This document shows, piece by piece, positions 440 through 55,446 of a stretch of DNA of 64,000 bases (within the stretch, counting starts at the first letter, position 1; every line of letters starts with the position of its first letter). The position numbers and the translations under genes are program-made. This DNA comes from Candidatus Levyibacteriota bacterium. Its GTDB lineage: Bacteria > Patescibacteriota > Microgenomatia > Levybacterales > UBA12049. The DNA lies in assembly GCA_016186645.1 (NCBI GenBank), contig JACPLF010000007.1:126651-190650 (forward strand). The letters run 5' to 3'. The notes under the pieces were generated by a model. It made no database searches, was not told the origin of the DNA, and worked only from the letters and a program-made list of their open reading frames with translations.

Positions 440-1315
440 ATGTCCATTTTTTCGTCATACAAAAAAATATTCTTGTTGGGTTTTATCATCATAATCCTTA
501 TTGCAATTCCGTTTTCCGTATATATTGCCCAACAACGTCAGAGAACAACTACCAAAGCTGCCGCTTCTACTACTCTATCTTTTGATCCCGCATCGACAGG
601 AGGAGCTCCTGTTGCTACAAAAGTAGGCGAGACACTGACTTTGAACGTTGTTCTTGATCCTTCAGCCGGCACTCCTGCAAACCAGGTTTCTTTTGTGAAA
701 TTGTCCATCACTTTTGATTCATCCAAATTTACAGCTGAAAGTTTTAAGCCAAGTACAGACCCGAAGAATACCCTTACTTCCGTATTGGAAGAAGCTAGCT
801 TAACCTCCGGCAGAGCAACTATATCTTTATCTATTGGAGCTGATCCGACAAAAGTTGTAACGACAAAAACTAAAATTGCAATTCTAAAACTTAAAGCTCT
901 ATCTGTAACAACGCCTGGCAATCCAAGCAGTGTTACTTTTGGTTCTGACACGCAAGTCTTATCAATCGCTTCCTCCGATCAAACAAGCGAAAATGTTTTG
1001 TCAACAACTAGTCCTGCGATAGTAACTATTAACTCTGCATCTGTTTCAGCGTCGCCCACTCCAACAACTGCAATTCTTACAATTACTCCTACATCTCTTC
1101 CAGGTAATGCCCCATCACCTACGCTCTCGCCTTCAGGAGGAAATGCAGCTTTGATTATTGCTACTTCAGCACCTACTCTTCAGCCTCTTCCAACGCCAAC
1201 ATTCTTTCCGCAAGTAATACTTCCTCCAACAGGACCTTCGGAAAATATATTGGGAATCGGAATTGTCGGAATGATATTTACAATTATCGGAGGGATTCTC
1301 TTTTTACTTCTTTAA
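440..1315 (+). CDS. LPXTG-anchored cell-surface protein (sortase substrate) with Pro/Thr-rich linker
   Basis: N-terminal signal/TM segment; C-terminus ...VILPPTGPSENILGIGIVGMIFTIIGGILFLLL is LPPTG plus a hydrophobic tail; PTPT-rich stalk. Confidence 0.55.
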   Translation: MSIFSSYKKIFLLGFIIIILIAIPFSVYIAQQRQRTTTKAAASTTLSFDPASTGGAPVATKVGETLTLNVVLDPSAGTPANQVSFVKLSITFDSSKFTAESFKPSTDPKNTLTSVLEEASLTSGRATISLSIGADPTKVVTTKTKIAILKLKALSVTTPGNPSSVTFGSDTQVLSIASSDQTSENVLSTTSPAIVTINSASVSASPTPTTAILTITPTSLPGNAPSPTLSPSGGNAALIIATSAPTLQPLPTPTFFPQVILPPTGPSENILGIGIVGMIFTIIGGILFLLL

Positions 1316-3060
1316 TTATTTTCTTCAATAATTGACAGAAGTGCTTCTTGAGGAATAGAGATTTTTGCCTGAGAGATCATTCGGGATTTTCCTTTTTTTT
1401 GAGCTTCCAATAATTTATCTTTTCTTCTTCTGTCCCCGCCACTCATCTTAGCTAAAACATCTTTTCTAAAAGGCGGGGTTTCTTCCCGAGTTACAATGTT
1501 TCCGTCTACAACTCCTTGGATAATTTGTCTGAATTGCTGGCGCGGCAGCGAGTTTTTAAGTCTTTCTGCTTTTTGTCTTGCTACATGAATTGCCTCATCT
1601 TTATATGCAAGCTCTGATAAAATATCAATTGCAATATCATTTACTTTTAGCTCAATTTTCGCCAAATCTGCAACTTTGTAAGAAGTCAATTCGTAATCTA
1701 GACTTGCATAGCCTTTGGATTTGGATTTCAGATCGGATGAAATTCCCCTAATAAACATGCTAAAAGGCATATCATAAGAGAGCGCTGCATAACTTTCATG
1801 ATAATTTAGGTCTAATAAGCTTCCTTTTCGGCTCTGGCAGATGTTCATAATCGGACCTACATAATCTTTAGGCGTATAAACTATCAATTTCATATAAGGC
1901 TCTAGTATTGTTCCATCCTCTCTCTTTTCATATAAGACGTGGGGCATAGTTAATAAAATTTCCAAATTAAATTCCTGCTTTATTCTTTCTTTGACAATCT
2001 GAGCATGTAAAAGTCCCAAAAATCCTACCCTAAAACCGGATCCTAAATAAGACGAATATTCTTCCGTATAAGTTAGGGCAGTGTCGTTAAGAGTCAATTT
2101 TGCAAGCGATTCTTTTAAATAGGCATAATCATTTGTACTTTTTGGATAGACTCCAAAAAACACCATCGGTTTGGGAATCTTGTATCCGGGCAGCGGTTCA
2201 AACTCCGAACTCTGAGCTCCGAACTCTGAACTCCGGACAGTGTCTCCGACACGCACTTTTCGGATATCTTTAACTCCTGTAATAACGTAACCAATTTCAC
2301 CTGTTGTTATTTCATTTGAAGAAACTAAATGGGGGGAGAAATATCCCAAATCTGTAATTTCTGACTCGATATTATTTTGATAAAACTCGATTTTTTCTCC
2401 TTTTTTTACTTGCCCATCAACTATTCTCACATACGCAACTACCCCGCGGAATTCATCATAAACAGCATCAAAAATAAGACCGCGCAGGGTCTTATCTTTT
2501 TCCCCTTTTGGCGCAGGAAGTCTCTTTACAACAGCTTCCAAAAGACTTTCTATATTTTTTCCTGTTTTTGCCGAAATATAAATTATTTCTTCTTCTTTAA
2601 ATCCAAATGTTCCAGCTAATTCTTTGCTTGTTGATTCAATCTGTGCGCTCGGCAAATCTATCTTGTTAACAACAGGTATCATGACTAAATTTTGTTTTTT
2701 GGCTTCTCTGAAATGCGCGACAGTTTGGGCTTGAATTCCCTGAGTTGCATCTACTAATAATATTGCCCCCTCACAAGCCGCCAACGTTCGGGAAACTTCA
2801 TAAGAAAAATCAACATGACCCGGAGTATCTATCAAATTCAGAATGTATAATTCAGAATTAAGAATATATTTCATTCTTACCGGGGCGAGCTTGATTGTTA
2901 TTCCCCGGCGTCTGCTGATTGGATTTTGGTCCAAAAACTGTTCTGTTATTTTTTCCTTGGGGATTGTTTTTGTAATTTCCAAAAGTCTGTCTGCAAGAGT
3001 GGATTTGCCATGATCTACATGAGCAATAATCGCAAAATTCCTAATATTTTTCTGTTCCAT
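1312..3060 (-). CDS. lepA: elongation factor 4 (LepA), translational GTPase
   Basis: N-terminus MEQKNIRNFAIIAHVDHGKSTLADRLLE (G1 motif AHVDHGKST), DTPGHVDF, NKID motifs; about 582 aa. Confidence 0.9.
   Translation of the reverse strand: MEQKNIRNFAIIAHVDHGKSTLADRLLEITKTIPKEKITEQFLDQNPISRRRGITIKLAPVRMKYILNSELYILNLIDTPGHVDFSYEVSRTLAACEGAILLVDATQGIQAQTVAHFREAKKQNLVMIPVVNKIDLPSAQIESTSKELAGTFGFKEEEIIYISAKTGKNIESLLEAVVKRLPAPKGEKDKTLRGLIFDAVYDEFRGVVAYVRIVDGQVKKGEKIEFYQNNIESEITDLGYFSPHLVSSNEITTGEIGYVITGVKDIRKVRVGDTVRSSEFGAQSSEFEPLPGYKIPKPMVFFGVYPKSTNDYAYLKESLAKLTLNDTALTYTEEYSSYLGSGFRVGFLGLLHAQIVKERIKQEFNLEILLTMPHVLYEKREDGTILEPYMKLIVYTPKDYVGPIMNICQSRKGSLLDLNYHESYAALSYDMPFSMFIRGISSDLKSKSKGYASLDYELTSYKVADLAKIELKVNDIAIDILSELAYKDEAIHVARQKAERLKNSLPRQQFRQIIQGVVDGNIVTREETPPFRKDVLAKMSGGDRRRKDKLLEAQKKGKSRMISQAKISIPQEALLSIIEENN
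2202..2237. repeat. 14-nt tandem repeat (ctccgaactctga x2 plus partial) in-frame inside lepA
   Basis: Direct tandem copies at 2202-2216, 2217-2230 and partial 2231-2237; encodes SSEFGAQSSEFEP on the minus strand without breaking the ORF. Confidence 0.7.
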
Positions 3061-6545: not shown

Positions 6546-7858
6546 AAAATCAATTACTTAATAAACGCATCCCCACCATCTTTGTTGTTGGGTTAATATT
6601 ATTAGGCATAGTCTTAACAACGCTTATTGTAAGAATGCAGACAAATCTCAAGAGCAATGCATCAAATTCGGAAGAACCGAAAAATGTAAAGATTACAAAT
6701 CTATCAGATAAATCTTTTACCATAACTTACCAAACGCAAGCGCTCACCACTGGGTCTGTAAGTTACGGCAACAGTAAACAGCTGGGAAATACAGAAGTGG
6801 AAGATCTTAATCCTAAAAATATTCACAGTATCAGTATACAAAAACTTGATCCTTCAACGAGATATTATCTTGTTGTAATTTCTGGTCAAAACACCTTTTT
6901 AAATAATGGCTCCCCCTTTGAGATTTCAACAGGACCTAATATCTCTTCTCCTTCTGCAGTACAGACAGCTATAAAAGGAAAGGTTCTTTTACCTGATGGG
7001 AAAGCACCTACGCAAGCACTTGTATATTTAAGCTCAGATAGTTCGCAGGTTTTGTCTACAACTGTCCAAAAAGATGGGGAATTTAGTTTTTCTCTAAAAG
7101 AACTTCGGACAAATAACCTTTCTTCATACTTTGGATTCAACGAGAATACGGTTTTTGAACTTTTGGCTGTAGATAATTCCTTAAAATCAAAAGTCTCATT
7201 TTCTTTAAATGAGACAGGTTCACTTCCCACAATTACATTGTCCAATGATTATGATTTTACTAAAGATTTTGTATCAGATGCTTCAAGTTCTGCGCAAGTC
7301 GGTTTCCCCTCTACGGCAGTCAGTTCTGAAAATTTGAAACCAGAGATATTAACTCCAAAAAAAGATCAGTCTTTCACCGATCAAAAACCGCAATTTCGCG
7401 GAACAAGTTTGCCAAATGAAGATGTGGAAATAGTAATTCATTCTGATGAAAATATACAAACTCAAGTAACAGCAGACAGTAATGGCAACTGGACATATCG
7501 TCCTCCCAATAATCTTTCTCCGGGACCTCATACGATAACAGTTAAAACTCGTGATTCATCCGGCATATTAACAACCATAATGCAGTCTTTTATTGTATTC
7601 GCACAGGGTTCCCAAGTATCAGAATCTGCTACCCCTTCCGCTGCTCCCACTCAACAGATCACGCCAACTTTGATCCCTACACTCACCCCAACACCCTTTC
7701 CATCCCCAACAATTACTCCTACTCCGTTACCAGTCTTTGTAGAGACCAAGGGTGGTTTGCCGCCAACAGGAGATTCTTCAATCCTGTTAATTATGGGAGG
7801 GGTTGTTAGTACAATTTTTGGGATCGCATTATTCCTGCTAACACGCACCGCCTTATGA
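6542..7858 (+). CDS. LPXTG-anchored surface protein with Ig-like/FN3-like beta domains
   Basis: Signal/TM at N-terminus; C-terminal ...TKGGLPPTGDSSILLIMGGVVSTIFGIALFLLTRTAL is LPPTG + TM + basic tail; PT-rich linker. Confidence 0.55.
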   Translation: MKNQLLNKRIPTIFVVGLILLGIVLTTLIVRMQTNLKSNASNSEEPKNVKITNLSDKSFTITYQTQALTTGSVSYGNSKQLGNTEVEDLNPKNIHSISIQKLDPSTRYYLVVISGQNTFLNNGSPFEISTGPNISSPSAVQTAIKGKVLLPDGKAPTQALVYLSSDSSQVLSTTVQKDGEFSFSLKELRTNNLSSYFGFNENTVFELLAVDNSLKSKVSFSLNETGSLPTITLSNDYDFTKDFVSDASSSAQVGFPSTAVSSENLKPEILTPKKDQSFTDQKPQFRGTSLPNEDVEIVIHSDENIQTQVTADSNGNWTYRPPNNLSPGPHTITVKTRDSSGILTTIMQSFIVFAQGSQVSESATPSAAPTQQITPTLIPTLTPTPFPSPTITPTPLPVFVETKGGLPPTGDSSILLIMGGVVSTIFGIALFLLTRTAL

Positions 7859-9402
7859 TGGTGTTTTTATTGATTTTAATTGGCGGATTTTTTCGCTTTT
7901 ACAATTTGGATTGGGGCAGCCCTTTTTATTTTCACCCTGATGAAAGAAATATTGCATCTTCTGTATTACAGATCAATTTCCCCAATCAGATGAACCCTCA
8001 TTTTTTTGCTTATGGATCTTTTCCTATATATTTAATTTATTTTACAGCTTTTTTTTTAAATTTAGTTAGCAAATCCCAACTGACTTTTGAACAAGCGCTT
8101 ATTATCAGCCGGTTCTATTCTGCAATTTTATCCGTACTTCTTATTCCCTCCATTTATTACATAGGAAGCAAATTAGCAAATAAAAACGTTGGGCTTATTG
8201 CAGCAGTATTTTGTACTTTTAGTGTTGGTCTGATTCAATTTTCTCATTTTGGAACATTTGAAATTTGGCTTACTTTTTTAGGTCTTTGGCTCTTTTATTT
8301 TTCCCTAAAATTATTAAAACAATTAGATTTTAAAGATATCATTACGGTTGGACTAATATCCGGACTTCTTGCAGCAACAAAGATTTCCTCTCTACCTCTT
8401 CTGATGATCCCTATGTTTTCTATATTAATAAGTTATTTATCACACAATAAATTATTCAAACATATCTTATATGGCTTGTCGCTAATATTTATCTCCTGCA
8501 TCTTATTTTACGCTGTTTCTCCTTATGTTTTTCTGGATACTTCTTCTTTTATAGCAAGCATGAGGCATGAGTCTTCTGTTGCTTTGGGAACATTATCTGT
8601 TTTTTATACGGGTGGCTTTTTCAATTCTATTCCTGTTATTTTCCAGTTTACGAAAATTTATCCATTTTTACTTAATCCAGCCTTGACTATCTTATTTATT
8701 CCTTCCCTAATTTATGTTATTTATTTTTTTCTGAAAAAACGGCATTATCCTCAATTACTTGTAGTCGCTTGTTTTTTATTACTTTTTTTCTCCCAAGCTT
8801 TTCTTTTTGCCAAATGGACAAGATATATATTGCCCACTTTGCCATTTGTATATTTAATAATTGCAATTTTTATAGATAAATTTATCAATAAAAAAATATT
8901 GCAAATCATATTTCTTATTTGCATAGTTTTTTCATGTTCTTATTTTATTGACAGTTTTGCAAGAAAGGATACCCGTATCCAGGCAAGTCTTTGGGCAAAA
9001 GAAAATATTCCTTCCAGCTCACGAGTATTAAGTGAGGTTTATGATTTGGGAATAGTCCCATTTAATCAATATCTGCCAAATATTTCCTTATTCAATTTTT
9101 ATGACTTAGATCAAACCCCCGACAAACCCTTGGAGCTTGATAAATTCTTATTAGAAAGTGGATATATTATTTTACCTAGTCAGAGAATTATACAAACTCG
9201 TATGATGAATAAAGACGAATTTCCCAATGGATATAAGTTTTACAATGAACTTATAAATGAGAAATTGGGATATAAAAAGGTTTACGAAACTTCTTGTGAT
9301 CTATTCTGCAAAATAATATATCTTGGAGATCCGGTTTTTTCATTCGAGGAAACTGCAAATGTTTTCGACCGCCCTACTGTTTTTATCTTTAAAAGAATGT
9401 GA
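7855..9402 (+). CDS. GT-C fold membrane glycosyltransferase (GT39/PMT_2-like, HPDER loop motif)
   Basis: 515 aa polytopic membrane protein; N-terminal loop FYNLDWGSPFYFHPDERNIASS; paralogous to the next gene. Confidence 0.55.
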   Translation: MMVFLLILIGGFFRFYNLDWGSPFYFHPDERNIASSVLQINFPNQMNPHFFAYGSFPIYLIYFTAFFLNLVSKSQLTFEQALIISRFYSAILSVLLIPSIYYIGSKLANKNVGLIAAVFCTFSVGLIQFSHFGTFEIWLTFLGLWLFYFSLKLLKQLDFKDIITVGLISGLLAATKISSLPLLMIPMFSILISYLSHNKLFKHILYGLSLIFISCILFYAVSPYVFLDTSSFIASMRHESSVALGTLSVFYTGGFFNSIPVIFQFTKIYPFLLNPALTILFIPSLIYVIYFFLKKRHYPQLLVVACFLLLFFSQAFLFAKWTRYILPTLPFVYLIIAIFIDKFINKKILQIIFLICIVFSCSYFIDSFARKDTRIQASLWAKENIPSSSRVLSEVYDLGIVPFNQYLPNISLFNFYDLDQTPDKPLELDKFLLESGYIILPSQRIIQTRMMNKDEFPNGYKFYNELINEKLGYKKVYETSCDLFCKIIYLGDPVFSFEETANVFDRPTVFIFKRM

Positions 9403-11147
9403 AATATCTACCATTATTTTTAATTTTAATTCTTGCTTTTATCTTGAGGGTATACGGACTAAATTGGGATCAAGGATTTCATTTGCACCCTGATGAACGG
9501 GCAATTGTAATTGCCTCTATACCCTTACAACTTCCTACCAATATTTCGGAACTTTTATCTGTCCAAAGCCCTTTAAATCCTCACTTTTTTGCATATGGGA
9601 GTTTACCAATGTATCTTCTTAAAGGGGTTGCTGTTCTCTTAACACCTTTTTATCCTCTTGCCTCATCATATGATCATATTAATTTAGTCGGACGTTTCCT
9701 CTCTGTTATTTTCGACATGGGAACTATTCTTATTATTTTTCTTCTGGGACAAAAACTTTTTTCAAGAAAAGTTGGACTAATAGCTGTATTTTTTTATACT
9801 ATAAGTGTTTTCCCTATCCAAGCTGCGCATTTTTATGCTGTTGATACCCCTCTTACTTTCTTTATTTTAGCAACTCTTTATATGCTTATTAGTTTCTATG
9901 AAAATCCTACAAAGAAAAAAGCTCTTTTTGTGGGGATATTATTTGGAATGTCTCTTGCAACGAAAACAAGTGCTTTAGTTCTGATAATGTCAATTGGAGC
10001 AGCATTAATTTCAGATTTTGTTTTGATATTTCTAAGAATTCCCCACCGACCTCATATTTGGTTTCCTCACATCCCTAAACTCATAAAAAAACTTTTAATA
10101 GAAGGTTTAATTATTTTAATATCAACAGTTATTTCTTTTATTATTTTTGAACCTTATGCTCTTTTGGATTTTAAGGAATTCTCAAGACAAACTCTGGAGC
10201 AATCGCAAATGACACATAATCCTTTCGCTTTCCCTTTTACCCTTCAGTACGTTGGAAAAATTCCATATTTCTATGAATTAAAAAATATTTTCTTTTGGGG
10301 TCAAGGACCGATTATTGCGACAATTTCTTTTTTGGGAACACTGTATATTAGTTTTCACCTAATAAAGAGACACCTCGGATGGTGGCGAAGCAACGACTTC
10401 GACTCCTCCGAGGTGGACAAGAGATGGGCACAAGAACTTATTCTTTTAATTTTTTTCTTAAGTTATTTTATTGTGGTTGGAAAATTTGCAGTCGGCTGGA
10501 TGCGCTACATGCTCCCTCTCTATCCTCTCCTTTCTCTTTTCGCAGCAGTTCTTGCTTATAAACTTCTAATTTTAATTAAGCGCAAATTTGGTTATTGGTA
10601 TTTATTTGTAGTATTGGTATTTATTTGTAGTATTTTATACTGGCCTTTATCTTTCGTGAATATTTATACAAAACCAAACACTCGCGTTTTGGCATCTGAG
10701 TGGATTAATCAAAATATTCCAGTAGGACCAACTCTTGCAATAGAACACTGGGATGATTCCCTTCCCTTGTTTGGCCAAGAAAAATATAAAATGCTTACAC
10801 TTCCGCTTTATGATCCCGATACTTCTGAAAAATGGAAAACAATAAATCAGGAATTATCAAAAACCGATTACATTATTATTGCTTCCAATCGACTTTATAC
10901 GCCACTTATGCGTTTGACAGATTGCAAAAAATTACCGGTGGGAAGATGCTATACGCAAACTTCTGAATATTATAAAAAACTATTTAGCGGATCTCTGGGT
11001 TTTAAGAAAGTAGCTGAATTCACATCGTATCCTAAATTTAGCTTCCCACTTGTCAAGTGGGAGCACGAAATAAATGATTCCTCAGCAGATGAATCTTTTA
11101 CGGTATACGATCATCCAAAAGTCCTAATTTTTCAGAAAATTCCTTGA
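9399..11147 (+). CDS. GT-C fold membrane glycosyltransferase (GT39/PMT_2-like), tandem paralog
   Basis: 582 aa; VYGLNWDQGFHLHPDERAIVIAS loop motif; ATGA start/stop overlap with the upstream paralog. Confidence 0.55.
   Translation: MKYLPLFLILILAFILRVYGLNWDQGFHLHPDERAIVIASIPLQLPTNISELLSVQSPLNPHFFAYGSLPMYLLKGVAVLLTPFYPLASSYDHINLVGRFLSVIFDMGTILIIFLLGQKLFSRKVGLIAVFFYTISVFPIQAAHFYAVDTPLTFFILATLYMLISFYENPTKKKALFVGILFGMSLATKTSALVLIMSIGAALISDFVLIFLRIPHRPHIWFPHIPKLIKKLLIEGLIILISTVISFIIFEPYALLDFKEFSRQTLEQSQMTHNPFAFPFTLQYVGKIPYFYELKNIFFWGQGPIIATISFLGTLYISFHLIKRHLGWWRSNDFDSSEVDKRWAQELILLIFFLSYFIVVGKFAVGWMRYMLPLYPLLSLFAAVLAYKLLILIKRKFGYWYLFVVLVFICSILYWPLSFVNIYTKPNTRVLASEWINQNIPVGPTLAIEHWDDSLPLFGQEKYKMLTLPLYDPDTSEKWKTINQELSKTDYIIIASNRLYTPLMRLTDCKKLPVGRCYTQTSEYYKKLFSGSLGFKKVAEFTSYPKFSFPLVKWEHEINDSSADESFTVYDHPKVLIFQKIP
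10374..10413. repeat. hairpin element (cctcgga ... tccgagg) in-frame within the GT-C gene
   Basis: 7-bp inverted repeat flanking cgacttcgactcc, a core shared with the uvrD/guaA element family; encodes ...LGWWRSNDFDSSEVDK.... Confidence 0.5.
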
Positions 11148-16781: not shown

Positions 16782-18677
16782 TTACAACATTATACTATGG
16801 ATCAAGACTTTCTAAAAGACTTAAATCAGGAACAACAAAAAGCAGTTTTGCAGACTGATGGTCCGGTAATCATTCTGGCAGGAGCAGGATCTGGAAAAAC
16901 AAGAGTGTTAACGTATAAAGTCATGTATTTAATACAAGATATGAAAATTGATCCCTTCAATATTCTAATGGTAACCTTTACCAATAAAGCTGCTAATGAA
17001 ATGAAAGAACGTGTCCAAAAAATGGGTGCAATTCCGACCGTTGCTACTTTTCATTCTTTATGCGCCAAAATTCTGAGGATTGAAGGAAAACATATAAACC
17101 TTCCTTCGCAATTCGCAATATATGATACGCAAGATAGTCTGGAGGCTATAAAAGAAGCAATGAAAAGGCTGAATATTTCTATAAAAGATTACAAACCGTC
17201 CTCTATTCTGGCGAATATATCGCAGGCAAAAAATGAACTTATCAATGATTCCGAATATTTAAAATATGCAAGAGGGAATTTCCAGGAAAAAGTTGCAAAG
17301 ATTTATCCTGTGTATCAAAAAATTTTAGCAGAAAACCATGCTCTTGATTTTGACGATCTTCTTTCTAAAACCGTGTTATTGTTTGAAGAAAATTTAACAA
17401 TTCTTGAAAAATATCAAGATCGTTTTCGTTATATCTTGATAGATGAGTACCAGGATACAAATCGAGCCCAATATATCTTGACTAAAAAATTAGCCAAAAA
17501 GTGGAATAATGTGTGTATTGTTGGAGATTTTTCCCAAAGCATATATAGCTGGAGAGGTGCGGATTTTACCAATCTATCCCGTTTCAAGGAGGATTTTAAA
17601 AATACAAAAACTTTTTCTCTTTCCCAAAACTATCGATCTACACAAAAAATTTTGGATAGCGCCTCATCGGTAATATCCAAAAATACAACTCACCCAGTAT
17701 TAAATCTTTGGACGGAAAATCCGAACGGTGATGAAGTTGTTATTTTTGAAGCACAAAATGAGCAGCAAGAAATAGAATTCGTAGTAAATACAATAGGAGA
17801 ATTTAGACTACAAGAAAAGAAAGATTTTAAATTTTCCAATAATGCTGTCCTGTATAGGACTAACGCTCAATCGCGAGTTTTGGAAGAAGTTTTTTTACAT
17901 AATAGTATTCCGTATGTCCTAATTGGGGGTACACGGTTCTACGAAAGAAAAGAAATAAAAGACGTACTCGCTTATTTGAGAGCATTGGATAACAAAAAGG
18001 ATAAGATATCTTTAAAGCGCATTGAAAAAATTGGAAAAAGAAAAATGGAGAAATTTCTAGAATTTCAAGAGAAAGTAAACGTCACTCTGGGGAGGTCGAC
18101 GCTTCGACCGACTCCAAAATCCGATTCTGGACAAGCCAGAATGACAACATTAGAACTTCTGGACAAAGTGCTAAATGTAACCGATTACCTATCTTTATAT
18201 GATGACCGTGACGAAGAAGATAGACAAAGACTGGAAAATATTAAGGAACTTCGTTCTGTAGCTTTTGAATTTTCCGATCTTACTAATTTTTTAGAAAATG
18301 TCTCCCTTGTTGAACAAGAATATATGCCGGATCCTTCGGCAAGCTCAGGACAAGCAAAGAAAGATGCTGTAACTCTTATGACACTACATGCAGCTAAAGG
18401 TCTTGAATTCCCATACGTATTTATGATCGGCATGGAAGAAGGACTTTTTCCACACTCTCGCTCATTAATGGAGAAGAATGAACTTGAGGAAGAAAGAAGA
18501 CTCTGCTATGTAGGAATGACTAGGGCTCGGAAAAGGCTCTTTTTAACCTATGCTAGAAGAAGAATATTCTTTGGTCAAAAAATTTCAAATATCGTTTCCA
18601 GATTTATTTTGGAACTTCCTGAAAATGTAATTGAACAAAATATTTCCTTAACTAACAATTATGAAAGCCTTAACTAA
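16773..18677 (+). CDS. uvrD: ATP-dependent DNA helicase UvrD/PcrA
   Basis: Walker A LAGAGSGKTRVLT, DEYQDTN, helicase motifs throughout; 634 aa; contains two in-frame hairpin-repeat insertions. Confidence 0.85.
   Translation: MVQLQHYTMDQDFLKDLNQEQQKAVLQTDGPVIILAGAGSGKTRVLTYKVMYLIQDMKIDPFNILMVTFTNKAANEMKERVQKMGAIPTVATFHSLCAKILRIEGKHINLPSQFAIYDTQDSLEAIKEAMKRLNISIKDYKPSSILANISQAKNELINDSEYLKYARGNFQEKVAKIYPVYQKILAENHALDFDDLLSKTVLLFEENLTILEKYQDRFRYILIDEYQDTNRAQYILTKKLAKKWNNVCIVGDFSQSIYSWRGADFTNLSRFKEDFKNTKTFSLSQNYRSTQKILDSASSVISKNTTHPVLNLWTENPNGDEVVIFEAQNEQQEIEFVVNTIGEFRLQEKKDFKFSNNAVLYRTNAQSRVLEEVFLHNSIPYVLIGGTRFYERKEIKDVLAYLRALDNKKDKISLKRIEKIGKRKMEKFLEFQEKVNVTLGRSTLRPTPKSDSGQARMTTLELLDKVLNVTDYLSLYDDRDEEDRQRLENIKELRSVAFEFSDLTNFLENVSLVEQEYMPDPSASSGQAKKDAVTLMTLHAAKGLEFPYVFMIGMEEGLFPHSRSLMEKNELEEERRLCYVGMTRARKRLFLTYARRRIFFGQKISNIVSRFILELPENVIEQNISLTNNYESLN
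18086..18146. repeat. hairpin repeat element family A (ggtcgacgcttcgacc + gattctggacaagccagaatgaca) in-frame in uvrD
   Basis: Near-identical to 54802-54858 in guaA (shared gactccRaaatcgattctggacaagccagaatgacaa); two stem-loops; encodes GRSTLRPTPKSDSGQARMTT. Confidence 0.7.
18329..18356. repeat. repeat element family B (ggatccttcggcaagctcaggacaagca) in-frame in uvrD
   Basis: 29-nt near match, about 3 mismatches, to the dnaG copy at 50347-50376 in reverse orientation; encodes PDPSASSGQAKK. Confidence 0.6.
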
Positions 18678-32670: not shown

Positions 32671-33222
32671 ATGGGAACTGTAACTTTAGGCGGAGGGCCT
32701 GCCCGCTATGCCACGGCAACCCTGGCAGGCGGGTGTTTCTGGTGCACAGAGGCTTTGTTCAAACGATTAAAAGGAGTTTTGTCTGTTGTTTCAGGATACA
32801 GCGGAGGGGAAACGGATAATCCATCTTATGACAAAGTCTCTCAGGGTACCACAGGACATGCTGAAGCGATCCAGATTGAGTTTGATCCGTCTATAATTTC
32901 TTATGAAAAGATTCTTAAGGTTTTTTGGGCTACTCACGACCCAACCACTTTAAATCGGCAAGGAGCTGACGTTGGCACACAATACAGATCTGTTATTTTC
33001 TATCATAATGAAAAACAAAAAGAACTAGCTGAGAAATCCAAACAGCCTTCTTTTGTAACCCAAATTCTGCCATTTGATAAGTTTTATAAAGCAGAAGATT
33101 ACCACCAAAATTTCTATGACAAAAATAAATCATATCCCTATTGTCAGATTGTGATAAATCCAAAAATCCAAAAACTCTTGGAACAATTTAAAAAGGACGT
33201 AAAAGAAGATGCAAATAATTAA
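32671..33222 (+). CDS. msrA: peptide methionine sulfoxide reductase MsrA
   Basis: ATLAGGCFWCTEALF catalytic motif. Confidence 0.85.
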   Translation: MGTVTLGGGPARYATATLAGGCFWCTEALFKRLKGVLSVVSGYSGGETDNPSYDKVSQGTTGHAEAIQIEFDPSIISYEKILKVFWATHDPTTLNRQGADVGTQYRSVIFYHNEKQKELAEKSKQPSFVTQILPFDKFYKAEDYHQNFYDKNKSYPYCQIVINPKIQKLLEQFKKDVKEDANN

Positions 33223-36506: not shown

Positions 36507-36785
36507 ATGGATAATCAAAATAAAATAACATCTATCTTATTTCTTCTTAAAAAAAAGAAAATACTTATTGGAGTACCATTGCTTCTGCTTTCTGTCGGAG
36601 TAATTTATGTTGGGCTAGTGCGATTTGGAGTTATCAAAGATCCTTTCCCTCTTCCTAATATACCTTTTCTTCAAACAGTCCCACAAGTTTCTATAAAAAC
36701 AGAATACAAAAATCCTTTTGATAAAAAAACCCAGTACGTAAATCCATTTGACACTTATAAAAATCCTTTTGTAATTGCAAAATAA
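36507..36785 (+). CDS. small membrane protein with C-terminal NPFD repeats, coupled to the giant protein
   Basis: 92 aa; one TM; C-terminus KNPFDKKTQYVNPFDTYKNPF; TAATG overlap with the next gene. Confidence 0.35.
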   Translation: MDNQNKITSILFLLKKKKILIGVPLLLLSVGVIYVGLVRFGVIKDPFPLPNIPFLQTVPQVSIKTEYKNPFDKKTQYVNPFDTYKNPFVIAK

Positions 36786-45960: not shown

Positions 45961-47034
45961 CTATTTCTCCTCAAAATTTGATTTAGGAAAATATTGATTT
46001 TCTTCTAGTTGATTTTCTTCAACAGTTTTAGTAGGTTTTTTGTGAGTTTTCCAACAGACAAAACCCATACCTCCCAATATAAAAATTGATATAAAAATAT
46101 AAGGCAAAAGTGTTATTTTTGAAATGCCTTCAATAAGAGTTTGCTTGGGAGGGTTAGAAGTTAAAGTTGGAGCGGAGGCCTTTGCAGATGCTGAGGCAGA
46201 TTGACTGATAGGCGTGGAGCGGACGAGCGAAGCGACGGAGCTCGCCTGCTTGACAGGCGTGGATATTAAAGTTAGAGTTGGAGTTGGGGTTTTTATCATC
46301 ACGCCTACTTTGGCAAAAAGTTCATTGGAATAATTCCCAGGAGCGCATCCATTGCCTGCCCTCACAACAAAATAATAAGTTTTTCCATCCACTAGCTTAT
46401 CAATCGTATATGAGGTTGTATTTGGTCCGCCAACATTCGGATTCCCATAAATATATTTTTTCGATTCAGTTCCGTAAGAAACAAGATAATAACTAACAGA
46501 TCCTGCGGCTTTTGTCCAAGTTAAGGTTATTTGACTTCCTGAACTGGAAACTGCAGATTTCAATACCGGTGCGGTGTCCGGTGCTTTGTCTTTGCAGGAA
46601 TCATCCGGCACTAAAGGGGAAGCAGTAAACTTGATCCAAACGCTGCCAAGAGTAACGGCTGGATTGCTGCTAACATCTGTAACAGTAAATGTATTTGTGC
46701 TTGGACTTAAGTTTTTTGATTTTACAGTAAAATCAACCTTTCCATTTGAATCTGTTGAGGCAGTGTGATTGCCTGCGCCAACAGCGCCATCATTAATAAT
46801 AAGTCCCGGGTCGCTTGTGCTTGTTAAAGTAATGTGGTCTCCTCCTAAACTATTTTTTTGCGCATCTTTTACGGTAACAGAAATAGTGGCAGTTGTTTTT
46901 CCATCCGCTGGTATAGAATCAGTGCTTTTTGTAATACTTGAGTTAACAGGATCCGCGTTATCTGCAAAAACAAAAGATGGAGAAATGTAGAAAAGGAAGA
47001 AAAGAACTAGAAGCAAGATTTTTATTTTTTGCAT
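45961..47034 (-). CDS. secreted, C-terminally membrane-anchored protein with Ig-like/FN3-like domains
   Basis: Signal peptide; FN3-like segment (SQITLTWTKAAGSVSYYLVSYG...YYFVVRAGN); C-terminal TM + basic tail. Confidence 0.5.
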   Translation of the reverse strand: MQKIKILLLVLFFLFYISPSFVFADNADPVNSSITKSTDSIPADGKTTATISVTVKDAQKNSLGGDHITLTSTSDPGLIINDGAVGAGNHTASTDSNGKVDFTVKSKNLSPSTNTFTVTDVSSNPAVTLGSVWIKFTASPLVPDDSCKDKAPDTAPVLKSAVSSSGSQITLTWTKAAGSVSYYLVSYGTESKKYIYGNPNVGGPNTTSYTIDKLVDGKTYYFVVRAGNGCAPGNYSNELFAKVGVMIKTPTPTLTLISTPVKQASSVASLVRSTPISQSASASAKASAPTLTSNPPKQTLIEGISKITLLPYIFISIFILGGMGFVCWKTHKKPTKTVEENQLEENQYFPKSNFEEK

Positions 47035-47270
47035 ACCTCTTTAGTATAGTATTTGCCTTGATAATTGTAAAAAGTTTAATTCCCACTCAAAGCTATGGAG
47101 AATTATTTAGCTTGACACCTTAAAGGCTTCGGCCGTGTCTTCGACTCTGAGGGATGAACCCTCAGGCTCAGACTCGAATGAGAGCTCAGCCGAATCGGTG
47201 GGATCGTATATCGTAACTACGAAATATAAAAAAAACTATTCTGGAAATTCCCCGCAAATGGCTTGGGTAA

Positions 47271-47298
47271 TTGTTCCGTTGTCTAGACAACGGAACAA
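47271..47298. promoter_or_regulatory. 28-bp perfect palindrome ttgttccgttgtctagacaacggaacaa (operator-like) in a divergent intergenic region
   Basis: Exact reverse-complement symmetry over 28 nt, in the 524-bp gap between divergent genes 45961..47034(-) and 47559..47945(+). Confidence 0.4.
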
Positions 47299-47519
47299 AT
47301 TAAAGTAAATCAACTATAGCCAATCTTCCCTCAAAGTCCTAAAACTTGCCAATTGGTCACCGCTTCTAAGCCTAAAAAAATGGACAAAATTTCCCGATCG
47401 GAGAAATTTGTCAAGAATCTAATGCTGGAAATTACCCACAAAAAAGAGTAAAATTGGGTTCAAATACTTGATGAAGAAGTGATTATTGACGTAGAAATGC
47501 CCAACATGTAAGAAAAGGG

Positions 47520-49136: not shown

Positions 49137-50960
49137 TTAAGCTTTGGAGAGGAGGCTAATCGTTGAGGCTAGTTCTTTTTCTAAATCGCCCACTTTTTTA
49201 ACATCTGCATCCCTATCTCCTGTCTTAAGCTTTAAGGAAATTTTTTTTATTCTTTCTTTCAAAAATAACGTTCTTAATTCAGCTGCGACCTTTTCTGATT
49301 CTAAAATATATTTCTCCTCATCTTCAAATTTAGGTAAAGGAAATAGATACTGAGTGTCAAAAGCGGTTTCCAATTCTTTAGGGAGGACCTTTAAGAAAAT
49401 TTTGGGATTAAATGTATTACTAGACTTGAAATAGTCAACTAAAAAATTTATTATTTTTTCATATGAAACTGTCTTAAACTCATAATTTTTGAGAATTGCC
49501 AAGCATCTATCTAAAATTTTCTTGGCATTGCCATTCTGAAGAATCAGAGCCAATAAATAATCCTCCAAGACTTCTTTTCTCTCTTTTTTTTCTATTTTCG
49601 CCTCTTTGATTTCTTCCTTTATAACCTCTTTCTTTTCTATTTTTTCTACCTCTTTTGCAATAGCATCCAAAGATATATCAAGATCAAGACTTAATTTTTT
49701 TAGATAGTGCTCTTTTACTATTTCATTTGAGATCTTTGTAAAGATAGGCAACAACTCTTCGCTTATTTTTCTTTTTCCATAAATTTTATCTTTTTCAAAG
49801 GCAGAAAACGTTTTTGAAAAAATAAAATCATATATTGGAACATCTTTTTTGATAGCCTTTTTAAAAGATATAGGATCTTTTTTTATGGCTTCGTCAGCGT
49901 CTTTACTTTCTTCAAAAATACAAGTTGTTATATTCATTCCTTTTTTTTCTAAAACAAGCAAACTTCTTTTCGCAGCTTCATAACCAGCATCGTCTTTATC
50001 AAAACAAAGACAAATATTATTTGTAAATCGGCTAATGAGAGCAACTTGATTCTCAGTAAGAGCAGTTCCTTTTACCGCCACGACATTTTTAACGCCAATA
50101 CTAAAACAAGAAATAACGTCCAATTCTCCTTCTACAATAATTGCTTTGTCTAGTTTTTTTATTTCTTCTTTTGCAGTATTTAAACCAAAAAACATACTGC
50201 CTTTGTGATAAACGAGTGTATCTCGAGTGTTAATATACTTTCCGCCGCTGTATGGCTCCAGAATTGCACGTCCTGAGAATCCTACAACATTATCCCTATG
50301 ATCAAAAAGCGGAAACATTACTCTTCCTCTAAAAAAATCAAGCACGCCTGCTTGTCCTGAGCCTGTCGAAGGACCCCTTCCATAAAACGCTAATCCTGCT
50401 TCTATCAAATCTTCCTTTTTATATTTTTTCTTGTTGATTAGATAATTGGACAGATCAACGCCATCTTTTGGAGAAAATCCAATCATAAAAGTCTCGATGA
50501 GTCTTTCGTCTAACTTTCTTTCTTCTACTAAGTAACCGAGTGCTTTTTTCCCGGCTTTGTGTTTGGTTAAAACATAATGATAAAAATCCAGGGCGGCTTT
50601 ATTTATTTTATAAATCATTTCTTTTTTCCCGGAAACACCCGCCTGGAAATCTGATTGTCTAAGCTGTATCCCTGTTCTTTTTGCCAAAATCCTCAAGGCT
50701 TCAACAAATTCCAAATTCTCATACTCCATGAGAAATGTATATACGTCTCCGCCCTTGCTGCAGCCTCCAAAACAGTGCCAAATCTGGCGCTCAGGAGAAA
50801 CAACAAAAGACGGAGTTTTTTCGTTATGAAAAGGGCAAATTGCCTTAAAATTGCGGCCCATTTTCTTAAGAGGAATATATTCCGATATAAAAGAAACTAT
50901 ATCTATTCTTTCTCGTATTTGCGCAACCTCATCCATCCCGTTAGAAAACCCTCCTTTCAA
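49137..50960 (-). CDS. dnaG: DNA primase DnaG
   Basis: Zinc-ribbon CPFHNEKTPSFVV...HCFGGCSKGGD, TOPRIM EGELDV...DKDDAG; contains the family-B repeat element in-frame at 50347-50376. Confidence 0.85.
   Translation of the reverse strand: MKGGFSNGMDEVAQIRERIDIVSFISEYIPLKKMGRNFKAICPFHNEKTPSFVVSPERQIWHCFGGCSKGGDVYTFLMEYENLEFVEALRILAKRTGIQLRQSDFQAGVSGKKEMIYKINKAALDFYHYVLTKHKAGKKALGYLVEERKLDERLIETFMIGFSPKDGVDLSNYLINKKKYKKEDLIEAGLAFYGRGPSTGSGQAGVLDFFRGRVMFPLFDHRDNVVGFSGRAILEPYSGGKYINTRDTLVYHKGSMFFGLNTAKEEIKKLDKAIIVEGELDVISCFSIGVKNVVAVKGTALTENQVALISRFTNNICLCFDKDDAGYEAAKRSLLVLEKKGMNITTCIFEESKDADEAIKKDPISFKKAIKKDVPIYDFIFSKTFSAFEKDKIYGKRKISEELLPIFTKISNEIVKEHYLKKLSLDLDISLDAIAKEVEKIEKKEVIKEEIKEAKIEKKERKEVLEDYLLALILQNGNAKKILDRCLAILKNYEFKTVSYEKIINFLVDYFKSSNTFNPKIFLKVLPKELETAFDTQYLFPLPKFEDEEKYILESEKVAAELRTLFLKERIKKISLKLKTGDRDADVKKVGDLEKELASTISLLSKA
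50347..50376. repeat. repeat element family B (reverse orientation) in-frame in dnaG
   Basis: Reverse complement ggtccttcgacaggctcaggacaagcagg resembles uvrD 18329-18356; encodes GPSTGSGQAGV in DnaG. Confidence 0.6.
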
Positions 50961-51172: not shown

Positions 51173-52468
<1,296 letters not shown>

Positions 52469-53865: not shown

Positions 53866-55446
53866 TCATTCCCATTCCATTGTTGCTGGAGGCTTGGTAG
53901 TAATGTCGTAGACAACTCTTGAGACGCCTGGAACTTCGTTAACTATTCTTGAAGAAATTTTCTGTAAAAGATCATAGGGGAGCCGGGCCCAAGTTGTAGT
54001 CATAAGATCTTTTGACTCAATCACCCGAAGAGCTACAACCTCTCCAAACTGCCTCCCATCTCCTTTAACTGCAGTTGAATATGCATCTGTCATAACCGGA
54101 AAAGACATGAAGATATTTGGAATTCCCGATTTTTCAAGCTCTGAAAGAACAATCTCATCTGCCATTTTCTCCATTTCCAATCTTTCTTTTGTAACTTCCC
54201 CTCTAATTCTGACTGCGTATCCCGGACCGGGAAAAGTCTGCTTGCTAACAAATTCCTCAGGCAGTCCTAATTTTCTTCCAATTTTTCTCACTTCATCTTT
54301 ATAAAAATCCCGCATTGGTTCCAAAAGTTTTAATTTCATTTTTTTTGGCAATCCGCCAACATTGTGATGTGACTTAATTTTAGCCGAATGTTTTGTGCCT
54401 TGAGATTCTATAACATCCGAATAAATCGTGCCTTGAAGAAGAAACTTTACAGGTATTTTTTTCTTTAACAATTTTCTCCTAACACTTTCAAAAATCTCTA
54501 TGTAAAAATTGCCAATAATTTTTCTTTTCTTCTCGCTATCTGTAATTTTTTTAAGGCGGGACATGGTCTCCCCTGTCACATTTACTACTACAGGCTTAAT
54601 GCCAATTTTCTTAAATATTTTTATTACATGCTCCTCTGTTCCCTTCCTCATTAATCCATTGTCAATAAAAACAGGGACAAATCTTTTCCCTATCGCTTTT
54701 GCTGTTAAAGTCGCAGCAACTGTAGAATCAACTCCTCCCGATACTGCTCCGATTACATAACTCTCCCCGACAGTTTTTTGAATTTCTGAAATTATCCTCT
54801 CTGTCATTCTGGGGAACGAAGTGACTCCAGAATCGATTCTGGACAAGCCAGAATGACAAATACCAATAAAGTTTTCCAAGATTTGTAAGCCAAATTGCGT
54901 GTGTTCCACTTCCGGATGAAATTGAAGCCCGTATATTTTTTTATACTTGTTTTCAACAAATGCAAAAGGAACCCCAACGGACGAACCTACTGTTTGAAAA
55001 CCTTTAGGCAATCTAACCACCTCATCTCCATGACTCATCCAGACAATAAATTGCCGCGGCAATTTAGATGAGAATTGAGAAATGAGAGATGGGAAATTTT
55101 TATTTCTCATTTCTGACCTCTCATCTTTCATTTCCAGTGTCGTTGGTCCATATTCTTTTTTTCCTGCAATAACTCTTCCGCCTAATAAATGTGCTGTTAA
55201 TTGCAAACCATAACAAATTCCCAAAATTGGAATTTTCAAACTAAAGATCTTCACGTCGATAGTTGGTGCGCCTTTTTCGTAAACAGAAGATGGGCCTCCA
55301 GACAAAACTATTCCTTGGGGTTTCTTCTTTTTTATTTTTTCAAGGGCATCATCCGGATTAGCTATTAATACCTGTACACCAATTTCTTTAAGACGGCGTG
55401 CAATAAGATGTGTCGTCTGAGACCCAAAATCAACAATTATAATCAT
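53866..55446 (-). CDS. guaA: GMP synthase (glutamine-hydrolysing)
   Basis: GATase (GICYGLQ, HPEV) plus ATP-PPase SGGVDS motif; contains the family-A repeat element in-frame in the inter-domain linker. Confidence 0.9.
   Translation of the reverse strand: MIIIVDFGSQTTHLIARRLKEIGVQVLIANPDDALEKIKKKKPQGIVLSGGPSSVYEKGAPTIDVKIFSLKIPILGICYGLQLTAHLLGGRVIAGKKEYGPTTLEMKDERSEMRNKNFPSLISQFSSKLPRQFIVWMSHGDEVVRLPKGFQTVGSSVGVPFAFVENKYKKIYGLQFHPEVEHTQFGLQILENFIGICHSGLSRIDSGVTSFPRMTERIISEIQKTVGESYVIGAVSGGVDSTVAATLTAKAIGKRFVPVFIDNGLMRKGTEEHVIKIFKKIGIKPVVVNVTGETMSRLKKITDSEKKRKIIGNFYIEIFESVRRKLLKKKIPVKFLLQGTIYSDVIESQGTKHSAKIKSHHNVGGLPKKMKLKLLEPMRDFYKDEVRKIGRKLGLPEEFVSKQTFPGPGYAVRIRGEVTKERLEMEKMADEIVLSELEKSGIPNIFMSFPVMTDAYSTAVKGDGRQFGEVVALRVIESKDLMTTTWARLPYDLLQKISSRIVNEVPGVSRVVYDITTKPPATMEWE
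54802..54858. repeat. hairpin repeat element family A in-frame in guaA (tgtcattctgg ... ccagaatgaca terminal inverted repeats)
   Basis: tgtcattctggggaacgaagtgactccagaatcgattctggacaagccagaatgaca; 38-nt core nearly identical to uvrD 18109-18146; encodes CHSGLSRIDSGVTSFPRMT, a linker about 7 aa longer than E. coli GuaA. Confidence 0.7.

Follow-up and report, generated by a model that had tools for sequence, protein, structure and literature searches.

Repetitive extragenic palindromes (REPs) are short repeats of 20-40 bp; many of their intragenic copies lie in replication and repair genes, and related species sometimes share the site (PMC3733652). Some repeats of the type of the Rickettsia palindromic elements (RPEs) are also found within repair genes (PMC3733652), and RPEs are read through and were judged to be compatible with the folds of the proteins that contain them (PMC10969869). 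The GC clusters of yeast mitochondrial DNA occur sporadically at homologous positions, are more constrained in their stems than in their loops and are accompanied by flanking tracts reminiscent of co-conversion; they are exchanged between species by homologous recombination and give rise to new clusters by merger and shuffling (PMC4478555). The present analysis concerns a 48-nt palindrome that lies in frame in a glycosyltransferase gene of a Candidatus Levyibacteriota bacterium (assembly GCA_016186645.1, contig JACPLF010000007.1). The stretch analysed comprises 64,000 nt of this contig (positions 126,651 to 190,650, forward strand) and is denoted as the window; all positions below are counted from its first letter.

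The segment is almost certainly a dispersed repeat that was inserted in frame. The best overall reading, which we consider probable, is that of a non-autonomous selfish palindromic DNA repeat of the Patescibacteria, or Candidate Phyla Radiation (CPR), which resembles REPs, RPEs and GC clusters and resides in a tolerated loop. A literature search revealed no prior description of such palindromic or in-frame repeats for these bacteria; its coverage was limited and it is no proof of novelty, and the element is apparently undescribed. Its parts and its host gene are as follows.

10370..10417, plus strand: whole element, 48 nt or 16 codons, delimited by conservation within the family
10371..10379, plus strand: left arm of the basal stem, CACCTCGGA, codons His-Leu-Gly
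10380..10385, plus strand: left half of the conserved internal module (bulged T, then GGTGG)
10386..10401, plus strand: variable apical stem-loop of subfamily A (CGAAG, loop CAACGA, CTTCG)
10401..10406, plus strand: GACTCC box, right half of the internal module
10407..10415, plus strand: right arm of the basal stem, TCCGAGGTG, codons Ser-Glu-Val
9399..11147, plus strand: host gene, a GT39/PMT_2 (GT-C fold) glycosyltransferase of 582 aa (Pfam)

The copy in the window reads A-CACCTCGGA-T-GGTGG-CGAAG-CAACGA-CTTCG-ACTCC-TCCGAGGTG-GA. An earlier note on this DNA had described a 41-mer starting at 10374 with a 7-bp inverted repeat. The 41-mer and the palindrome are real, but the former runs from 10373 to 10413, one position earlier than given, and the perfect arms extend to 9 bp (10371-10379 and 10407-10415), so that the hairpin proper covers 45 nt (10371-10415). 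Its inner 5-bp stem is formed by CGAAG (10386-10390) and CTTCG (10397-10401) around a loop of 6 nt, and the G at 10401 serves both as the final base of this stem and as the first base of the GACTCC box. Between the arms and the inner stem, a bulged T is followed by GG/CC, a T-T mismatch, a G-C pair and a G-A mismatch, the two mismatches arising where GACTCC opposes GGTGG. The core that the earlier note had singled out, CGACTTCGACTCC, is located at 10394-10406. The element has three parts, namely a 9-bp basal stem, a conserved asymmetric internal module and an exchangeable apical stem-loop.

Folded as RNA, the element reaches a minimum free energy of -26.5 kcal/mol (z = -4.1), a value attained by none of 200 shuffled sequences, and folded as DNA it reaches -15.9 kcal/mol (z = -6.6). 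It ranks second in stability among the 12,790 overlapping 50-nt segments of the 64 kb. Shuffles and ranking together rule out a chance palindrome. The GC content at the element (0.60-0.62 over 40 nt) is the maximum within its gene, compared with a 99.5th percentile of 0.60 for 40-nt segments and 35.7% GC for the whole window. A search with degenerate arms detected no further copy in the 64 kb; the only other arm pair that it returned, at 52002-52079, is a weak chance match.

The host open reading frame (ORF) matches Pfam PMT_2 (7.5e-14) and PMT (6.7e-08), and its product, with 1277 homologues, matches a protein at NCBI from a 'Candidatus Levybacteria' metagenome-assembled genome (MAG) at 100% identity. 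Within this frame the element is read as HLGWWRSNDFDSSEV, residues 325-339. In an AlphaFold2 model of the protein (mean pLDDT 85.7, pTM 0.88), residues 326-336 are non-helical and lie between helices 304-325 and 337-360; the pLDDT of the insert loop (57-70) is among the lowest values of the protein. The placement of an in-frame palindrome in a loop of a GT-C enzyme, as proposed in the earlier note, is thereby supported: the element adds 15 residues to an inter-helix loop of the PMT_2 glycosyltransferase and leaves the frame intact. Two further ORFs bear on this gene.

7855..9402, plus strand: tandem PMT_2 paralog, element-free at the equivalent loop (Pfam, alignment)
10379..10561, plus strand: nested ORF of 60 codons in another frame (mechanical ORF list)

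The nested ORF begins with an ATG within the element, formed by its GGA-T-GG, and is wholly enclosed by the gene with 1277 homologues. The earlier note had called it spurious, and it probably is.

The history of the site can be followed in 120 aligned orthologs, from which a rough neighbour-joining tree was derived. The earlier note had asked for a comparison with the tandem paralog; the segment is absent there, as it is from the ten closest orthologs (66-74% identity). Element-free sites consist of a short Lys-rich linker (KKNKERKW; example ILKKNKERKWAQE), at the position where the window protein reads LIKR-HLGWWRSNDFDSSEV-DKRWAQE. A minority of more distant orthologs harbors related inserts at exactly the same position, e.g. 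KHLGWWQKHQTFDSSEVDKKW and EHLGWWRGSDLDSSEV. These carriers are patchy, falling into at least six separate places of the tree, and the sister of the window gene in that tree (P0002) has an empty site.

DNA was compared for seven orthologs (L001-L007), including one empty allele (L007), and gene order corresponds to that of the window wherever flanking genes are present. In the carriers L001-L005, a variable stretch of 20 to 62 nt separates ACACCTCGGATGGTGG from GACTCCTCCGAGGTG, and GACAA comes next in most of them. Their arms are unchanged base for base, save one base in L002, although the genes share merely 62-67% DNA identity with the window gene. L007, the nearest ortholog with available DNA (76% DNA identity), has the empty site AAAAAGAATAAAGAAAGAAAATGGGCG. 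A further locus (L019, from a GTDB representative of the Levyibacteriota) has a gene of 61.7% protein and 67.7% DNA identity and an element identical at 45 of 45 positions, a match expected by chance at that identity with a probability of 0.677^45, or ~2e-8. The left arm CACCTCGGA is identical in L001-L005 and L019. At this site it is the DNA, and not the protein, that is conserved. The alternative named in the earlier note, that the paralog and all orthologs encode an equivalent segment by non-palindromic DNA, does not apply, as carriers use the same palindromic DNA.

The same GT-C loop is occupied by an element of the uvrD/guaA type (described below) at locus L236 and by a third palindromic type at L237, and on this comparison it is a hot or permissive spot for several families. 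A paralog-type gene at the metagenome locus L179 bears the target element at the equivalent loop, and PurL orthologs have one insertion site that is common across lineages. The ortholog loci also show the same arms in a DUF2298 gene and in the upstream PMT_2 paralog, in other reading frames.

Copies of the element are dispersed over CPR genomes. A scan with the arms alone (CACCTCGGA-N(8-38)-TCCGAGGTG) in one genome per species gave at least 120 matches; those of high GC content are unrelated hairpins or terminators, and the low-GC subset alone was used. Among the matches listed, the low-GC ones derive from Levy-, Davies-, Gottesman-, Woese-, Curtiss-, Beckwith- and Berkelbacteria and from Parcubacteria, and their hosts are ordinary housekeeping genes, among them PurL, LepA, TopA (topoisomerase I), PheT, AspRS, SucC/SucD, fructose-bisphosphate aldolase, TsaD, AtpB, AtpD and an M24 peptidase. 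Again among the matches listed, a variable apical hairpin is enclosed by (Y)GGTGG(C)...GACTCC in 23 of 47 low-GC hairpins. All 23 contain CTCC by selection, the script having required that box; G at -6 (20/23) and A at -5 (19/23) were both free to vary. One purL copy (locus L118) reads ACACCTGGAAGGTGG-CGAAGCAACGACTTCGACTCC-TTCAAGGTGGAC, with an inner part of 21 nt identical to that of the window, and the same gene harbors copies of two further subfamilies, both known from GT-C orthologs. It stems from the same MAG as L002.

That MAG, the 'binchicken' assembly GCA_964544105.1 (CAZIZQ01; loci L002, L118 and L123), is titled 'uncultured Gammaproteobacteria'. This label is probably wrong, since the gene order at L002 matches that of the Levybacteria window and the GC content is 36-41%. 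The arm pattern was also seen in other low-GC loci from similarly labelled 'binchicken' MAGs.

In metagenomes, the 26-nt core GGTGGCGARGCARCGACYTCGACTCC was found on 108 contigs, all of 33-47% GC, which represent 84-88 distinct flank contexts. Host open frames of at least 150 aa number 85 and fall into 36 protein clusters, which Pfam assigns to ArgRS and amine oxidase as well as to GT4, GT2, PMT_2, DUF2298, M24 peptidase, PurL, PurQ, radical SAM, GvpL/F and FolD; the last ten bear out the suggestion of the earlier note that the family is not restricted to information-processing genes. L129 and L159 were discarded as GT-C hosts; they had been clustered via the peptide encoded by the element, and alignment shows aminotransferase-like proteins. 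Open frames of at least 150 aa contain 68 of 88 contexts (~77%). Orientation relative to the host frame is 38 to 30, all six frames are in use, and the same DNA is read elsewhere as WRGNDL, GEATTS, VARQRP, ESRSLP, SRGRCL or VEVVAS. Carrier contigs have ~0.03 extra copies per kb, a density that suggests tens of copies per genome. Scans of IMG/VR returned nothing that would indicate carriage by phages.

Per-position conservation over 85 flank contexts falls to background right outside the 48-nt block. The family consensus is A-CACCTCGGA-(Y)-GGTGG-CGAGG-CAACGA-CCTCG-ACTCC-TCCGAGGTG-RA, and subfamilies differ in the inner stem (CGAAG/CTTCG, CGAGG/CCTCG, CAAAG/CTTTG) with pairing kept in all of them. 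The core search pattern permitted all four combinations at the variable inner pair, which is G-C in 69 and A-T in 15 contexts and mismatched in none of 84. A variant of the basal stem (GAA/TTC) is likewise compensated. The bulge and the T-T and G-A mismatches beside the basal stem are kept even with very different apical hairpins.

Tandem or nested arrays are frequent, e.g. in the metagenome GT-C orthologs L128, L138 and L161, at L118 1292-1450 and at L006 3497-3586. One array reads HLGWWRSNDFDSSEV-DVHLRGVHSATSKV, and GAGGTGGCCGAATGGACTCCTCGRAGGTG is a recurrent composite; their sequences indicate merger and shuffling of units.

The window harbors two copies of a second type of palindromic insert.

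18081..18145, plus strand: uvrD element, GTCACTCTGG-GGAG-hairpin-CGACTCC-AAAATCC-GATTCTGGACAAGCCAGAATGAC, in frame (host UvrD by Pfam)
54803..54857, plus strand: guaA element, second copy of the uvrD-type family, in frame (host GMP synthase by Pfam, gene on the minus strand)

Both have GTCAYTCTGG...GACTCCARAATC(C)GATTCTGGACAAGCCAGAATGAC in common. Their family is built on GTCATTCTGG...CCAGAATC...ATTCTGGACAAGCCAGAATGAC, a motif present in the window at 18124 and 54836 alone, and follows a two-hairpin layout, GTCAYTCTGG, then either GGAG-hairpin-CGACTCC or TAAGC..GCATC, then CAGAATC..ATTCTGGACAAGCCAGAATGAC. Thirteen distinct copies were found in ~1.15 Mb of low-GC DNA, including the one in the GT-C loop at L236 (1943-2080). 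Like the target, these elements are GC-rich, palindromic and in frame; unlike it, they have the terminal repeats GTCATTCTGG/CCAGAATGAC and a second hairpin, ATTCTGG-ACAAG-CCAGAAT, and are devoid of the CACCTCGGA arms. The earlier note had placed the target and the uvrD element in one family, on account of a CTTCGAC echo of the uvrD string CGACGCTTCGACCGACTCC (18097-18115). This assignment was rejected: the arms differ, relatives elsewhere reveal a separate uvrD/guaA family, and the echo falls within the variable inner stem, which differs between the target's own subfamilies. Only the inner GG-variable hairpin-(C)GACTCC module is common to both; it is present in the target and in 6 of the 13 listed uvrD/guaA-type copies. 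The two are alike in kind and may share a module, whether by homology or by convergence.

As a selfish or neutral piece of mobile DNA, the element would survive where an additional surface loop of 15-16 residues does no harm, and it would be transcribed and translated through rather than removed. It may have reached the GT-C gene by homologous recombination that imported a carrier allele together with ~40 nt of 5' flank, or it may be an old insertion that was lost in sister lineages and kept uniform through copy correction by other copies. Primary transposition would probably require a structure-specific enzyme that recognises the mismatched hairpin in single-stranded DNA, for which the REP-associated tyrosine transposases (RAYTs) and IS200-type HUH transposases acting on REPs may serve as a model. 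Read-through, arrival by recombination or copy correction and enzymatic mobilisation are steps that we infer, and the proposed way of mobilisation, drawn by analogy, is far less certain than the dispersed repeat itself.

The first route is consistent with the flank of the insert. Over ~60 nt upstream, the DNA is 80-90% identical to L001/L003 and 51-67% identical to L007, an order that reverses farther off. The 14 aa upstream show an identity of 0.59 to carriers and of 0.43 to the twelve closest non-carriers, whereas global protein identity is 0.61 to carriers and 0.72 to the closest non-carriers. The picture recalls the co-conversion tracts described next to the GC clusters of yeast mitochondria (PMC4478555). 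The likeness is not decisive, since the gene has further mosaic patches, the empty state is represented by the DNA of one allele, and an assembly chimera at the repeat is possible. In the alignment, the window gene is also nearer to L001 than to its nearest ortholog at columns 1395-1455 and is 90% identical to L004 at columns 1785-1830; such mosaic patches in the sequences suggest recombination among Levybacteria alleles.

Other explanations have to be weighed against that of a selfish repeat. The segment might be a DNA signal that benefits the host and is kept by selection, e.g. the binding site of gyrase or of a protein of the nucleoid or of recombination, or a sequence that serves DNA uptake or self-recognition in competent, pilus-bearing episymbionts; with little intergenic space in compact CPR genomes, such sites would be forced into tolerant coding loops. 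Extreme nucleotide conservation over distinct CPR lineages, the conserved bulge and mismatches of the internal module (suggesting recognition by a protein), the use of both orientations, as expected of a DNA site, and viral contigs free of copies all speak for a signal. We nevertheless regard it as unlikely, for the density is low and uneven (1 per 64 kb here, ~0.03 per kb for carrier contigs), the GT-C site is empty in the closest relatives, no regular spacing or positional rule was seen, and the apical part is freely exchanged or nested with other elements, a habit characteristic of selfish palindromes, for instance the GC clusters of yeast mitochondria (PMC4478555).

Alternatively, the hairpin might act in the mRNA of the operon, by pausing translation past a transmembrane helix, as a site of RNase processing or stabilisation or as an attenuator, which would agree with its high stability, with compensated stem changes and with a position directly after a transmembrane helix. 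Such a role is contradicted by orientations of 38:30 and the use of six frames, and it is difficult to reconcile with arbitrary positions in soluble as well as membrane proteins and with ten closest orthologs that lack the element. Rfam 15 gave one tRNA and nothing else for the window at gathering thresholds and only chance-level matches (E 3.6-8.8) for 10330-10460 at E up to 10. An intrinsic terminator was dismissed, as the coding strand has no terminator-like site and the sole candidate, called at chance level, is a partial stem of the opposite strand. An mRNA structure is therefore very unlikely. Least credible of all, and next to impossible in our view, is a selected loop motif HLGWW...DSSEV of the glycosyltransferase family with incidental palindromic DNA. 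The motif does recur at the same position in several orthologs; yet synonymous positions are invariant while the remaining gene is ~65% identical, the interior varies in length (20-62 nt), the paralog and most orthologs are devoid of the segment, the loop is of low model confidence, and identical DNA is read as differing peptides in other genes, the use of six frames contradicting a protein motif.

The reading as a selfish repeat, too, has evidence against it. No direct repeat of 3-5 nt indicative of a target-site duplication exceeded the permutation test at any tested offset in 78 full copies, where weak 2-nt signals alone were seen near the ends, in A-rich flanks; nor did these copies reveal a clear target motif. 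No transposase or mobilising gene was identified, no search aimed at transposases having been made, and for lack of such a gene mobility is deduced entirely from the distribution. The window contains one copy only, and density elsewhere is modest (~0.03 extra per kb). The pairing counts possibly reflect few founder subfamilies instead of many independent events. Other mosaic patches in the host gene resemble distant orthologs as well, so the mosaic at the flank is not unique, and it could also have arisen through a chimera in metagenome assembly or as the end of the helix adapted. Near-identity across CPR lineages and the conserved mismatches could mean selection for a host function, and translation through the element is deduced from intact frames.

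A broader proposal is tentative, and we hold it to be doubtful: a CPR-wide class of mobile hairpins might exist, with a fixed protein-recognition module (9-bp stem plus T-T/G-A internal loop), a swappable apical hairpin, a novel structure-specific enzyme that moves it, exchange between lineages and homing-like reinsertion into the same loops, or else the element might be a domesticated uptake or recombination signal. If true, such a class would represent a free-living-bacterial counterpart of the mitochondrial GC clusters together with a new mobilisation system.

Further GC-rich or repetitive stretches were observed in the window. In lepA (ORF 1312..3060, minus strand), positions 2182-2256 form a GC-rich, repetitive palindromic stretch, CCGGAGTTCAGAGTTCGGAGCTCAGAGTTCGGAGTTTGAACCG, which is in frame (RSSEFGAQSSEFEP), folds at -27.6 kcal/mol with its flanks and looks like another type of intragenic element. 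The dnaG gene (ORF 49137..50960, minus strand) harbors the palindrome GTCCTGAGCCTGTCGAAGGAC at 50337-50384, in frame as GPSTGSGQAGV. In some copies of the target family (L126, L055, L015) the apical part consists of similar hairpins, CCCTGAGC..TCGAAGGG, which suggests nesting or merger of element types. Positions 46189-46267, in an ORF for an Ig-like/fn3 protein (45961..47034, minus strand), reach up to 72% GC and are partly palindromic and in frame (CGCCTGTCAAGCAGGCGAGCTCCGTCGCTTCGCTCGTCCGCTCCACGCC). Downstream of a sigma-70 gene and outside ORFs of at least 100 aa lies a GC-rich, strongly folding region (47124-47300) with CTGAGGGATGAACCCTCAG, GAGCTCAGCCGAATCGG and GGAACAATTGTTCCGTTGTCTAGACAACGGAAC; it has no match in Rfam at E up to 1 and might represent either a small RNA or several elements in a cluster. 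The ORF 36785-39553 (922 aa) is without Pfam match and ends in ~500 C-terminal residues of Tyr/Thr/Pro-rich low-complexity repeat (YYTP, YTTP, SYGTP), which accounts for the local GC content of 0.44 and the GC skew of -0.40 at 38-40 kb. The most stable 50-nt segment of the 64 kb is that at 32686-32735 (GCCTGCC..GGCAGGC, GC 0.75, -27.5 kcal/mol), at the 5' end of ORF 32671..33222.

Bacteria of the CPR, an uncultured group that makes up a huge share of the bacterial tree, have genomes that are tiny and densely packed. The element would extend the notion of a protein-coding palindrome, known mainly from Rickettsia, with intragenic REPs in a few other phyla, to this group. Where host genes are ~65% identical between lineages, the near-identity of the element is a mark of recent exchange of DNA or of strong copy correction in the CPR, and the element offers a concrete handle for finding an enzyme that moves hairpins. 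There are practical consequences as well: inserts create spurious nested ORFs such as 10379-10561, lineage-specific loops disturb marker-gene alignments and phylogenies, and metagenome assemblies may break or become chimeric at the inserts. The inserts further indicate which positions of essential proteins tolerate insertions.

[quoted passage not shown] REPs are, like the target, short imperfect palindromes at many genomic sites; the target is somewhat longer (45-48 nt). REPs bear a GTAG/CGTC tag, whereas the target ends in ACACC and GGTGRA with no tag at either end or on either strand, and REPs are mostly extragenic, downstream of genes, whereas the target is ~77% intragenic. Its hairpin has conserved irregularities by which an HUH tyrosine transposase could recognise it, as in REPs.

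The RPEs are closest in behaviour, being palindromes that lie in frame within numerous unrelated housekeeping genes, in a genome that is small and AT-rich, with tens of copies per genome, as is suggested for the target. They measure ~100-150 bp, belong to Rickettsia and encode a conserved peptide per family, whereas the target has 48 nt, occurs in Patescibacteria and uses six frames; its modular build, with a basal stem, an internal loop and an apical hairpin that can be exchanged, also sets it apart. No sequence relationship is expected, and the two were compared by description. In form, the GC clusters of yeast mitochondria come closest; one of them, GC42, is a GC-rich hairpin of ~42 nt in a very AT-rich genome. 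The target resembles them in its GC content (60% against 36%), in its scatter over the ortholog tree and in its compensated stems. GC clusters are mitochondrial (fungal) and putative AG target-site duplications were reported for them, whereas the target, for which none were found, is bacterial and mostly intragenic.

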